Origin: Octopus vulgaris
Taxonomy: Eukaryota
Assembly: GCA_951406725.2 (NCBI GenBank)
Contig: OX597833.1
Span: 39,866,001 to 39,930,000, forward strand
DNA length: 64,000 bases
Direction of reading: 5' to 3'
A program made the translations under genes and the position numbers. Positions 18,597 through 32,706 of this stretch are shown here, in pieces; the first letter of the stretch is position 1; every line of letters starts with the position of its first letter. The notes beneath the pieces are model-generated. The model saw nothing but the letters and a program-made list of their open reading frames with translations, was not told where the DNA came from and made no database searches.

Positions 18597-20230
18597 ATCA
18601 TCACCATCATCATTTAGCGTCCGTTCTCCATGCTAGCATGGGTTGGACGGTTCAACTGGGGTCTGTGAAGCTGGAAGGCTTCATCAGGCCCAGTCAGATC
18701 TGGCAGTGTTTCTACGGCTGGATGCCCTTCCTAACGCCAACAACTCTGTGAGTGTAGTGGGTGCTTTTTACGTGCCACCCGCACAGGTGCCAGACAGAGC
18801 TGGCAAACGGCCACGAACGGATGGTGCTTTTACGTGCCACCAACACGGGGGCCAGACAGAGCTGGCAAACAGCCACGAAATGGATGGTGCTTTTACGTGT
18901 CACCGGCACAGGGGCCAGGCGAGGCTGGCAACGAGCACGAACGGATGGTGCTCTTACATGCCACCAACACGGGGGCCAGACAGGGCTGGCAACGGGCACG
19001 AACGGATGGTGCTTTTACATGCCACCAACACGGGGGCCAGACAGGGCTGACGAACGGATGGTGCTTTTACGTGTCACCGGCACGGGGGCTAGGCGAGGCT
19101 GGCAACGGACACGAATGGATGGTGCTTTTACATGTCACCGACATGGGGGCCAGACAGGGCTGGCAAACGGACACAAACGGATGGTGCTTTTACATGTCAC
19201 CGACATGGGGGCCAGACAGGGCTGGCAAACGGCCACAAACGGATGGTGCTTTTACATGTCACCAACATGGGGGCCAGACAGGGCTGGCAAACGGCCACGA
19301 ATGGATGGTGCTTTTACGTGTCACCGGCACGGGGGGCCAGGCCAGGCTGGCAACGAACACGAACGGATGGTGCTTTTACGTGCCACCGACACGGGGGCCA
19401 GACAGGGCTGGCAAACGGCTACGAACGGATGGTACTTTTACGTGTCACCTGCACGGGGGCCCTGATGTTGATCGACCTCAATTTGGTTTGATCTTGATTT
19501 TGACTGTTCTCACTGGTCTTGCCGGGTTTTCTCACGCACAGCATACCTCCAAAGGTCTCGGTCACTGGTCATTTCCTTGGTGAGACCTAACGTTCGAAGG
19601 TCGTGCTTCACCGCCTCGACCCAGGTTTTCCTGGGTCTACCTCTTCCACAGGTCCCCTCAACTGCCAGGGTGTGGCCCTTTCGCACACAACTATCTTCAG
19701 CCATTCTCATCACATGACCATACCAGCGCATACGTCTCTCTTGCACACAACAACTGATGCTTCTTAGGTTCAACTTTTCTCTCAAGGTACTTACACTCTG
19801 TCGATTATGAACACTGACGTTACACATCCATCGGAGCATACTAGCTTCATTTCTTGCAAGCTTACGCAAATCCTCAGCAGTCACAGCCCAAGTTTCACTA
19901 CCATGTAGCATGGCTGTACGTACACATGCATCATACAGTCTGCCTTTTACTTTGAGCAAGAGGCCTTTTGTCACCAGCAGGGGTAAGAGCTATCTAAACT
20001 TTGCCCAGGCTATTCTTACTCTAGCAGTTATACTTTCAGCGCACCCGCCCCCGCTACTGACTTGGTCACCTAGGTAACGGAAACTATCAACTACTTCTAG
20101 CTTTTCTCCCTGGAAGGTGACGGAAGTTGGTCTCAGAGCATTTTCAGTGTTAATTGTTCCTGAGCATCTGCCACATACAAAAACCATCTTCCTAGTTAGC
20201 CTTCCTTTGACATTGCTGCACCTCTTCTTT
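18597..20230 (-). mobile_element. 5'-truncated RTE-clade LINE (RT C-terminal region, 3' UTR, (TGA)n tail)
   Basis: ORFs 19990-20230 and 19510-19974 are in one frame, split by a single TAG. Motifs [38 protein letters not shown] are typical of RTE. Confidence 0.92.
18760..19462. repeat. ~61-bp minisatellite (12 units) in the RTE 3' UTR
   Basis: GGTGCTTTTAC motif at 18760, 18823, 18886, 18947, 19008, 19060, 19121, 19183, 19245, 19307, 19369, 19431. Confidence 0.93.
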
Positions 20231-28339: not shown

Positions 28340-28608
28340 GCATGGCTGTGTGCTAAGAAGCTTGCATCCCAACCACATGGTTCTGGGTTCAGTCCCACTG
28401 CATGGCACATTGGGCAAGTGTCTTCTACTATAGCCTCAGGTTGATCAAAGCCTTGTGAGTGGATTTGATAGGCAGAAACTGAAAGAGATTGCTAGAAAAA
28501 GTACTAGGCTTTAGAAACAGGTCCTAGAGTCTATTTGTTCAACGAAAACCCTTCAAAGCAGTGCTCCAGTATGGCTGCAGCCAAATGACAGAAACAAGTA
28601 AAAAAATA
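28340..28608 (+). mobile_element. SINE family A, internally deleted
   Basis: Family A head and tail. Confidence 0.8.
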
Positions 28609-28661
28609 AAATAATATATCTGTCTATCTATTCTATGTATTTATCTTCCTTTATATATATA

Positions 28662-28704
<43 letters not shown>

Positions 28705-28822
28705 CAATCAAGGAACGGCCATAATAGGCCATTCACCCACTAGAAATAACAGCCAAAAGCTTTAACCGCAAAATAACGTCAATTCCGTAAACCAGGAGAA
28801 AATTGAAAAACATTGCCCTGTA

Positions 28823-28929
28823 ATTTCTTAGACGATGCACCGTTTCATCTTCTGTTTAATGGAAAACTAACCTGATTAAATTAAATCAAGCCAATCTACC
28901 ATAGGCCCTTAGATTCATCAGTAAGAAAT
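28823..28929 (-). ncRNA. Type I hammerhead ribozyme (copy 1)
   Basis: Exact reverse complement of the ribozyme at 29688-29794. Confidence 0.85.
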
Positions 28930-29687
28930 AGCCAAACCGGAACAGATATTTTTCACGAGGCATTCTCATTGCTACCTCGTCAATATCTGACCTAAAATTT
29001 TCAAATCGTCGCACTCGCGCCAAATTTATCGGCAGCAAATAAATATAAGCCGCCGATTCCATTACGGAATTAACCAGAAAATTCATAATTAATCAATATA
29101 GGGTGGCAAATAAAAATTTTGTAGAATTCTTTTGCCTCCAGCGGCCTAGTGGGAAAAAATTAAATAGTCATAAACCATTTTTAAGTTCAACATTAACAAT
29201 CAAGGAACGGCCATAATAGGCCATTCACCCACTAGAAATAACAGCCAAAAGCTTTAACCGCAAAATAACGTCAATTCCGTAAACCAGGAGAAAATTGAAA
29301 AACATTTACCCTGTAACGATGCACCGTTTCATCTTCTGTTTAATGGAAAACTAACCTGATTAAATTAAATCAAGCCAATCTACCATGGGTGAATGGCCTA
29401 CTATGGCCGTTCCTTGATTGTTAATGTTGAACTTAAAAATGGTTTATGACTATTTAATTTTTTCCCACTAGGCCGCTGGAGGCAAAAGAATTCTACAAAA
29501 TTTTTTTTTGCCACCCTATATTGATTAATTATGAATTTTCTGGTTAATTCCGTAATGGAATCGGCGGCTTATATTTATTTGCTGCCGATAAATTTGGCGC
29601 GAGTGCGACGATTTGAAAATTTTAGGTCAGATATTGACGAGGTAGCAATGAGAATGCCTCGTGAAAAATATCTGTTCCGGTTTGGCT

Positions 29688-29794
29688 ATTTCTTACTGAT
29701 GAATCTAAGGGCCTATGGTAGATTGGCTTGATTTAATTTAATCAGGTTAGTTTTCCATTAAACAGAAGATGAAACGGTGCATCGTCTAAGAAAT
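29688..29794 (+). ncRNA. Type I hammerhead ribozyme (copy 2); predicted cleavage after C29786
   Basis: Stem I AUUUCUUA/UAAGAAAU; core CUGAUGA (29696-29702); stem II AUCU...AGAU enclosing a long hairpin; GAAA (29771-29774); quasi-palindromic stem III CGGUGCAUCG; GUC triplet. Confidence 0.87.
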
Positions 29795-30164
29795 TACAGG
29801 GTAAATGTTTTTCAATTTTCTCCTGGTTTACGGAATTGACGTTATTTTGCGGTTAAAGCTTTTGGCTGTTATTTCTAGTGGGTGAATGGCCTATTATGGC
29901 CGTTCCTTGATTGTTAATGTTGAACTTAAAAATGGTTTATGACTATTTAATTTTTTCCCACTAGGCCGCTGGAGGCAAAAGAATTCTACAAAATTTTTTT
30001 TGCCACCCTATATTGATTAATTATATATATATATATATATAAGAAATAATTAAGATTCAGTTGAATTAGTTTTTTCAAAGTGGGTAGGGGATATCAAATG
30101 GTCAGAAGGCCATATTCTATTCATACGTTGGAATTTATGGCTGAGTGTTTGATGAGCATTTATC

Positions 30165-31501: not shown

Positions 31502-32692
31502 CAGGGTTTCCCAAAATTAAGGCAACTGAAGTTTCAGGCTTTAATAATTATCAATGAATGTGATAAGATATGAAAATTATACATAATTTTAAGTTTAGTA
31601 TGTCTTCTTTTCATTTTAGACTAAATAAATTCAGATTTATAAATTAGATAATGGCTATAGGCCAAAATGTAATCATAACCCCAACAAAGGAGACAAAAGT
31701 AATACAGCCATAGCAAAAATGCTTAAAATTAACAAAACAACAGTCTGGAAGTGTGCAGACCCCTCAGCTTATCAAAAGTACCAGAGAAAAGATACAGTGA
31801 AATCCTCATTGTTCCATCAGAAAACTGGCTGTCATAGCAAAAAAGCCGAACATAAATGTATTAAGTGCTGAAGGGGGATCTCAGGACCCACCCCTACAAA
31901 ATAATCTGCTATCATGAGCTCACACAAGTTTATAAGGCCATGAAACTGGAGAGAAGTCATCTTATTGTGTATCAGATTGCTGAAGACATGCTTCCCAACT
32001 CGATATTCACTGATGAGAAGAAATTTGACATTGAACAAAATGGCGAACTTTGGACTGTATCTAGCTTTGGCAAGGGTAGACTCATAAATCGATGTCAAAA
32101 TCCACAGTCAGTTATAGTTTGGACAGCTGTGACGGCCACTGGAAGGTCTCCCCTCATTTTTGTGCCCTCAAATGTTAAAATTAACACCCAGCAACATTCT
32201 GGAAGCTGAATTGTTTCCATGGGCGAATGAACACTTTCAAACACACTTTGGAGCCACCAACATGACTCTGCACCAACACACAGCTCTAAACAGACACAAC
32301 ACTGGATTCAGAAAAAACATTACGTCATTCATAGGCAATGAGGTATAGCCCTCAAGAAGCCCCAATCTCAACCCATTGGACTGTTCTGTTTAGTCCATTT
32401 TGGAGACAAAGGACTCAAGCACTCCTCGTGCTTTGTTCAACACACTGAAGGTAAAAATGTGCCAGAAATGGGCTTCGATTCTGCAAGAAGAGTTGCATGC
32501 CATGTGTGGAGTATTCGCACCTAGGCTTAAGGCTGTGATTCGAAAGAGAGGTGGTCATATTGAATAAATGTGGTAGTGTCATAATTGTGTTTCCTTTACT
32601 GTTGCATTGCAATGCTTGGACCTGAAATATATCAATATTTTGCTTTGGCAAAATTGAAAAAAAGTTGGTTGCCCTAATTTTGGGACACCCTG
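31502..32692 (+). mobile_element. Decayed maT (DD37D) transposon with both TIRs
   Basis: TA|CAGGGTTTCCCAAAATTAAGGCAAC ... GTTGCCCTAATTTTGGGACACCCTG|TA. Motifs IFTDEKKF, VWTAVTATGRSPL, QHDSAPTH, PSRSPNLNPLD; 37 residues between second and third Asp after correcting one +1 frameshift. Confidence 0.88.
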
Positions 32693-32706
32693 TATACACA
32701 CATATT

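Follow-up and report, generated by a model that had tools for sequence, protein, structure and literature searches.

The segment at positions 28700-30024 of the window (the whole 64,000-nucleotide stretch of Octopus vulgaris DNA analysed here, contig OX597833.1, positions 39,866,001 to 39,930,000) is best explained, with a probability of roughly 0.7, as a single insertion of a non-coding tandem repeat that carries a hammerhead motif, i.e. a non-LTR retrozyme, written into a (TA)n microsatellite by twin priming of the type of Penelope-like elements (PLEs). On the features that could be tested, the family to which this locus (L070) belongs is one of non-LTR retrozymes with the insertion signature of a PLE. 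The new part is a one-site-per-strand rule on one template. The locus displays the following features.

28652-28699, no strand: left (TA)n target microsatellite (period 2, 24 copies)
28700-29386, minus strand: left arm, 687 bp, running in ribozyme sense through unit positions 330 to 493, 1 to 493 and 1 to 40 and ending at start site A (position 40)
28700-28734, minus strand: start module A, i.e. predicted hairpin 1 (unit 6-27) then CTTGATTGTTAAT, adjoining (TA)n; called from the sequence, the fold and the ends of the family
28824-28928, minus strand: left-arm copy of the type I hammerhead motif, intact; cut predicted between 28831 and 28830
29310-29386, minus strand: partial ribozyme in the inner part of the left arm; 9 nt are deleted across its predicted cut site (near 29316)
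29383-29389, no strand: head-to-head junction, with a 1-nt exact overlap (T29386) within CCATGG
29386-30024, plus strand: right arm, 639 bp, running through unit positions 1 to 493 and 1 to 147 and ending at start site B (position 147)
29689-29793, plus strand: type I hammerhead motif of the right arm, with helix I TTTCTTA/TAAGAAA, CTGATGA at 29696-29702, a long helix II, GAAA at 29771-29774, a short helix III and GTC; predicted cut after 29786
29919-30024, plus strand: tail (unit 41-147, ~107 nt), at the right end only of L070; its last part is start module B, i.e. predicted hairpin 2 then CTATATTGATTAATTAT
30025-30041, no strand: right (TA)n target microsatellite, read from the sequence

The two arms are 98-100% complementary across 433 nt and therefore the two-arm structure of L070 does not result from chance. 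They overlap by 1 nt exactly (T29386), or by 4 nt with one mismatch, and their junction is housed in the palindrome CCATGG. Sequence comparison confirmed the numbers given by the first-pass annotation for the arms (28700-29386 on the minus strand and 29386-30024 on the plus strand, 687 and 639 bp, overlap of about 1 nt). Its observation that both sense 3' ends merge into (TA)n also holds, since the left arm passes into the microsatellite by ...GATTGTTAAT and the right arm by ...TTGATTAATTAT; both flanks, examined for target-site duplication of more than 4 bp, are (TA)n. Furthermore, both arms are longer than the 493-bp reference unit (window 29386-29878), as in the multi-unit template that it had proposed, and each arm is an independent copy. 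The arms are non-nested, asymmetric and distinguished by private changes. Placed on a linear multimer, the A arm corresponds to positions -659 to 40 and the B arm to positions 1 to 640, so that the two arms together cover ~2.6 units of linear sequence and share 40 nt of it. Elsewhere in the window, positions 28340-28610, beside the insertion, hold a short repeat of very high copy number (estimated by depth), which looks SINE-like; positions 18760-19461 hold a GC-rich tandem array (62-bp period, 11.5 copies), and the short ORFs at 31832-32700 may represent a broken Tc1/mariner transposase.

The unit has a GC content of ~36% and its longest ORF encodes 66 aa, indicating that it is non-coding; the ORF scan did not find in it the RT and GIY-YIG ORF expected of an autonomous PLE. 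Unit positions 304-408 correspond to a type I hammerhead motif that includes helix I (TTTCTTA/TAAGAAA), CTGATGA, GAAA, a short near-palindromic helix III and GTC, with a hairpin insert of ~65 nt inside helix II and a cut predicted after position 401. Across subfamilies, the core is CTGANGA/GAAA, with every base represented at N7 and either GTC or GTA as triplet; helix II has 4 bp in young subfamilies and 5 bp in older ones. In an alignment of 12 hand-picked variants, whose rows were picked by a pattern requiring helices I and II and which therefore leans towards the structure, 8 of the 17 hammerhead pairs change on both sides and 97.5% of cells pair, while slid registers gave at most 1 pair and none of 500 shuffles reached this level. 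As Rfam gave no hammerhead match for the unit, at gathering score or at E<=10, the hammerhead is called from the core motif and this covariation. In unconstrained folds of the unit, it is not the lowest-energy form, other structures being preferred. Deletions at the predicted cut site were found in L049 and L070. In older subfamilies, arms stop just 3' of the predicted cut (positions 400-425) in 21 of 105 passes versus 5.7 expected; in the youngest subfamily, which includes L070, a single stop was found in 199 passes, the 198 others crossing the site, and this near-absence of cut-site stops counts against the main reading. Words present in public runs guessed to be RNA amounted to 41-55%.

The search of the 2.8-Gb genome (227 contigs) provided 1,049 unit candidates, the best 40 of which were scored. 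These 40 top-scoring loci, which are biased to long young arrays, were complemented by 59 loci of contig 1 anchored on either end; the latter were chosen on their (TA)n flank, the former were not. Altogether, 100 insertions were analysed, after five segments had been dropped (four distant relatives and one cut by the locus edge), and their anatomy revealed no terminal direct repeat around a unique core, i.e. no LTR-type layout. Exact patterns joining an end to (TA)n gave 237 matches for site A and 667 for site B, versus 0 for controls. A rough capture-recapture calculation done by hand on contig 1 (20 and 48 hits, 7 of them common) leads to ~1,700 loci, and the family thus comprises roughly 1,000-1,700 insertions. 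More distant relatives were also encountered. A sister family (L180-L199), ~71% identical, has a CCGATGA core, keeps both end sites and the layout, and counts 1,343 first-look candidates; L116:3469-3913 and L091:2650-3050 are still more distant relatives of the unit, one of them with its own hammerhead motif.

Two-armed insertions (82 of 100) are the norm in the family and every one of them is divergent (head to head), so that the inversions and (TA)n flanks expected from the first-pass annotation prove general. The 18 other insertions were scored as one-armed, a few of them carrying second arms of 7-20 nt, and they weigh against the main reading. Among the two-armed insertions, 78 of 82 associate an A end with a B end, none has two A ends or two B ends, and four combine a B end with an odd end; this pairing was found in 35 of 35 loci of the top-scoring set and 43 of 47 of the end-anchored contig-1 set. 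An apparent A+A pair at 46.28 Mb of contig C4 was rejected, as it corresponds to one A+B insertion that includes a copy of an older junction. Site A ends fall at unit positions 30-48 (~40) and site B ends at positions 136-152 (~147), the precise letters being GATTGT(T)GAT or GATTGTTAAT for A and TTGATTAATTAT for B. Both sites are alike, with a predicted hairpin, then TTGATT, then six bases ending in AT. The tail is 107 nt long and is present at one end only in 78 of the 82 two-armed insertions. These data speak against priming on arbitrary AT-rich patches, which had been suggested from L070 alone, since the outer ends are two fixed sites, one of each, in 78 of 82 cases; they also lead us to abandon the idea of circularly permuted ends, given the absence of same-site pairs and the clustering at ~40 and ~147. 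Fixed termini had been regarded as a mark of a DNA transposon: the termini are indeed fixed, but they are better read as start sites of Penelope type than as transposon ends.

By contrast with these outer ends, the inner ends of the arms vary. Most junctions display 0-6 nt of overlap or a few filler bases, and almost every locus has its own junction position and arm length; only L084 and L089 have both inner positions in common, at the cut site. One arm can contain up to ~8 units, 26 of 78 loci have two arms of more than one unit each, and the A arm is the longer one in 40 of 78. Two unusual arms were observed: at L127:5423-5991, arm A consists of two tandem 239-nt mini-units (unit 47-300 deleted) while the units of arm B are normal, and at L032:6544-6584, 41 nt of unrelated GT-rich filler separate a truncated arm from (TA)n.

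Comparison of the arms with each other points to a single template primed twice. Among the 47 loci whose arms share at least 150 positions, the median arm-to-arm distance is 0.2% within loci versus 4.3% between loci, and the partner arm is strictly the closest one in 20 of 47, ties falling within young subfamilies. Furthermore, 11 of 59 loci carry private variants that are fixed in all their units (13 variants in total, 10 of which occur in both arms). In L097, L102 and L200, variants common to both arms place the start at B one unit downstream of the start at A, and other A/B offsets were deduced in the same way in L049, L051 and L035. B arms stop near site A, at positions 24-48, in 12 cases versus 5.7 expected (p=0.015), a modest excess obtained with an interval picked after seeing the data, whereas A arms stop in this interval in 0 cases versus 4.5 expected. 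The most instructive locus is L200 (contig C4, 46281393-46286222), where both arms copy the same composite RNA, which contains the internal (TA)n junction of two older insertions and a 12-nt deletion, once per arm. In its B arm, hairpin 1 is missing precisely from the unit in which A began and, past the skipped hairpin, this arm copies ~1.2 kb that the A arm also copied; this re-copying implies either displacement or a second RNA. The claim that both target strands were primed is supported at L070, and in the family by the A+B ends (78 of 82) and the non-nested arms (25 of 78 loci).

Beyond the unit, its fold, the fixed ends, the shared haplotypes, the junctions and the (TA)n flanks, which are observed, we infer a mechanism in five steps, in which the RT/GIY-YIG protein of a PLE would likely write the unit into (TA)n by priming both cut strands on one RNA. 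A donor array would be transcribed as a multi-unit RNA, partly cut by the ribozyme, and some monomers may circularise. A dimer of the PLE protein would then bind the two hairpin+UUGAUU modules, 107 nt apart, and nick both (TA)n strands. cDNA synthesis would begin at B from one 3'-OH and at A from the second, A lying either in the same unit or in an upstream one. The enzyme that started from B may stall at site A, skip it or run through it by strand displacement. Finally, microhomology of 0-6 nt or short filler would connect the cDNA 3' ends, each cDNA serving as template for the second strand of the other. For L070, the simplest fit would be that B was primed one unit downstream of A and that synthesis ended 39 nt beyond A; ~2.6 units of linear RNA would be enough.

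Among other explanations, a double rolling circle, in which both enzymes run round a closed circle (monomer or small multimer) and displace each other's cDNA, is possible but doubtful for L070. It would account for the variants fixed in all units (13 in 11 of 59 loci), which need a one-unit bottleneck followed by amplification, unless a homogeneous donor explains the homogeneity of the units. It also agrees with the periodic patterns of variants (period 2 in L102, with two complementary variants, and in L062; period 4 in L032), with the loci where both arms exceed one unit (26 of 78), with the 198 of 199 crossings of the cut site in the young subfamily and with the accumulation of metazoan retrozymes as circles, described in the available part of PMC7229834. 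However, a monomer circle is incompatible with the variants that L049, L051, L097 and L035 carry in one unit per arm, synthesis runs off at the predicted cut site in older subfamilies, and the excess of A-arm stops at site B that a circle predicts was not found (2 versus 1.8). The composite RNA of L200, with its one-off deletion copied once per arm, is best read as a linear read-through template, and L070 tiles a linear RNA; rolling-circle copying, which the first-pass annotation had invoked, is therefore not needed at L070. In vitro, the dominant substrate is uncut RNA, according to the portion of PMC11167929 that was accessible. In the family as a whole, circular and linear templates are likely both in use, the circles being unproven. 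Priming on two RNA molecules of one donor, one bound at A and the other at B, appears unlikely: it would explain the overlap of the arms without strand displacement, and two RNAs transcribed from one locus would be expected to have the same haplotype, but many subfamilies coexist and yet no mixed pair was found in 47 testable loci (largest distance 3%, L088). Furthermore, B stops at the A hairpin or skips it, and the symmetric junctions fit two enzymes leaving one RNA end.

These symmetric junctions (8 of 78, p=9e-5), several of them in palindromes, fit either this departure from one RNA end or a fold-back; in the latter sense they count against the main reading and speak for single priming followed by snap-back of the cDNA (self-priming, PMC3846280) and endonuclease trimming at the second site (PMC8557442), which is also the published account of PLE inverted repeats and tails in what could be consulted of these articles. 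The arms are, however, non-nested in 25 of 78 loci, including L070, and wholly disjoint in three (L105, L110 and L124), and therefore snap-back on the new cDNA is not the general route; either arm can also be the longer one (A in 40 of 78). Refuted in this general form, snap-back may cover about a tenth of events and is very unlikely at L070. Still more improbable is a DNA transposon of fold-back type, or a MITE, that would insert at TA and end in short, imperfect repeats (9/12 nt): the fixed ends, the TA flanks and the TTGATT common to both ends recall such elements, but the locus-specific junctions imply that the two-armed structure is made anew each time, and an RNA template is indicated by truncation of 5' type and by arms ending at the ribozyme cut. 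The least credible explanation is a fold-back or chimeric assembly artefact. Neither the L070 junction nor an empty site was seen in the contigs of four public runs, an uninformative result from which no conclusion is drawn, and a flank search that drew on the stretches L201 and L202 did not show an empty site either; the end rule holds in 81 other two-armed insertions, whose junctions are different, and the L070 arms are asymmetric and differ by private changes, whereas the fold-back of a read would mirror the flank. LINE-1 twin priming, with poly(A) as first site and a variable internal second site, was rejected because the sites are fixed and there is no poly(A).

The preferred reading, twin priming by a PLE enzyme, leads to the question of which element provides this enzyme. 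The genome harbours an intact young PLE (L163:1307-5960 and relatives, with many intact copies) whose 765-aa ORF matches RVT_1 and GIY-YIG, with CxxxxCxxC before GIY-YIG. It is flanked by (TA)n and has one tail end (~40 nt) and one no-tail end; the 6 divergent pairs of ends found within 10 kb, in the range covered by both lists (100 no-tail and 31 tail ends), all associate a tail end with a no-tail end (p ~0.002), the pairing rule of the retrozyme family. We assume that this family belongs to the Neptune-type clade. The clade label draws partly on the accessible text of PMC8557442. This PLE also possesses a separate upstream ORF of at most 466 aa and a non-canonical hammerhead-like motif. A second young PLE family (L176:2321-5483) displays inverted arms that are 100% identical and a ~35-nt tail at one end, and at L055:4626-4690 a retrozyme insertion and the end of a Neptune-type PLE share one (TA)n tract. 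Among 50 GIY-YIG loci, taken from 6,136 first-look candidates, no autonomous PLE with sequence in common with the unit was found, and these 50 loci gave no pLTR match to it; a protein search and a sister-family search retrieved several Neptune-type families, none with unit sequence. This negative result counts against the preferred reading, and the enzyme is therefore deduced from its footprint.

The published work discussed here and below is cited for the portions of each article that were available. Non-LTR retrozymes were defined in PMC7229834, which proposes that their circles are reverse transcribed by PLEs, and were tied to pLTRs through similarity in bioRxiv 10.64898/2026.07.22.740005. 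Like the metazoan elements described in these two sources, the octopus units are non-coding tandem repeats of low GC content with one type I hammerhead per unit, but the ~65-nt hairpin insert in helix II sets them apart. Metazoan non-LTR retrozymes are described as plain tandem arrays, whereas the octopus insertions are mostly two-armed with two fixed ends; their movement by PLE enzymes through circles was proposed, mobilisation by PLEs being argued from co-occurrence and pLTR similarity, while no pLTR match to the octopus unit was found among the 50 GIY-YIG loci.

The similarities with endonuclease-bearing PLEs (PMC8557442, PMC3846280 and PMC11167929) include an inverted 5'-truncated copy arranged head to head, a one-sided tail, AT-rich or (TA)n targets and two internal RT start sites. 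PMC8557442 reports insertions with inverted 5' copies in (TA)n targets and a tail of 30-40 bp that is frequently confined to one end and is explained by endonuclease resolution, and PMC3846280 attributes the inversions to self-priming. According to PMC11167929, the PLE protein, predicted to be a dimer, cuts and extends both strands in vitro and two internal start sites bound the tail; the start site was alike on both strands in vitro, and this lack of strand difference counts against the strand-specific start sites of the main reading. The octopus family differs from these PLEs by the lack of ORF in the unit, by its 107-nt tail (versus 30-40) and by arms that can both be multi-unit. Furthermore, its one-of-each rule is strict and was counted, whereas in the parts of the PLE papers drawn on here the tail is optional and the inversion is explained by self-priming or endonuclease resolution. 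As in the twin and dual priming of LINE-1, defined in PMC2837659, two target strands are primed and inverted arms are joined by microhomology; L1, however, primes at poly(A) and at an internal site, with twin priming as a side route, while in the octopus family both sites are fixed without poly(A), double priming predominates and the template segments copied by the two arms often overlap. No statement of twin priming for PLEs or of two-armed retrozyme insertions was found in the open-access literature searched.

The sources cited above leave open how PLEs complete their integration and by which enzyme animal retrozymes are moved. The ~1,000 young insertions of the octopus family, with their fixed start sites, shared haplotypes and collision scars, provide a countable record of the reaction, and the minimal RNA for in vitro assays, from the predicted cut site to site B, would be ~240 nt. 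A broader and tentative proposal, in our opinion rather more likely wrong than right, is that PLE retrotransposition would be an obligately asymmetric double reaction, in which a dimer uses, for each target strand, one of two programmed start modules of a single RNA, and hence requires no separate priming of the second strand; on ribozyme-made circles, two enzymes would chase each other and regenerate long arrays from one unit. Such strand-asymmetric double priming, giving both strands from one RNA, would, if true, differ from the integration of LINEs and R2.
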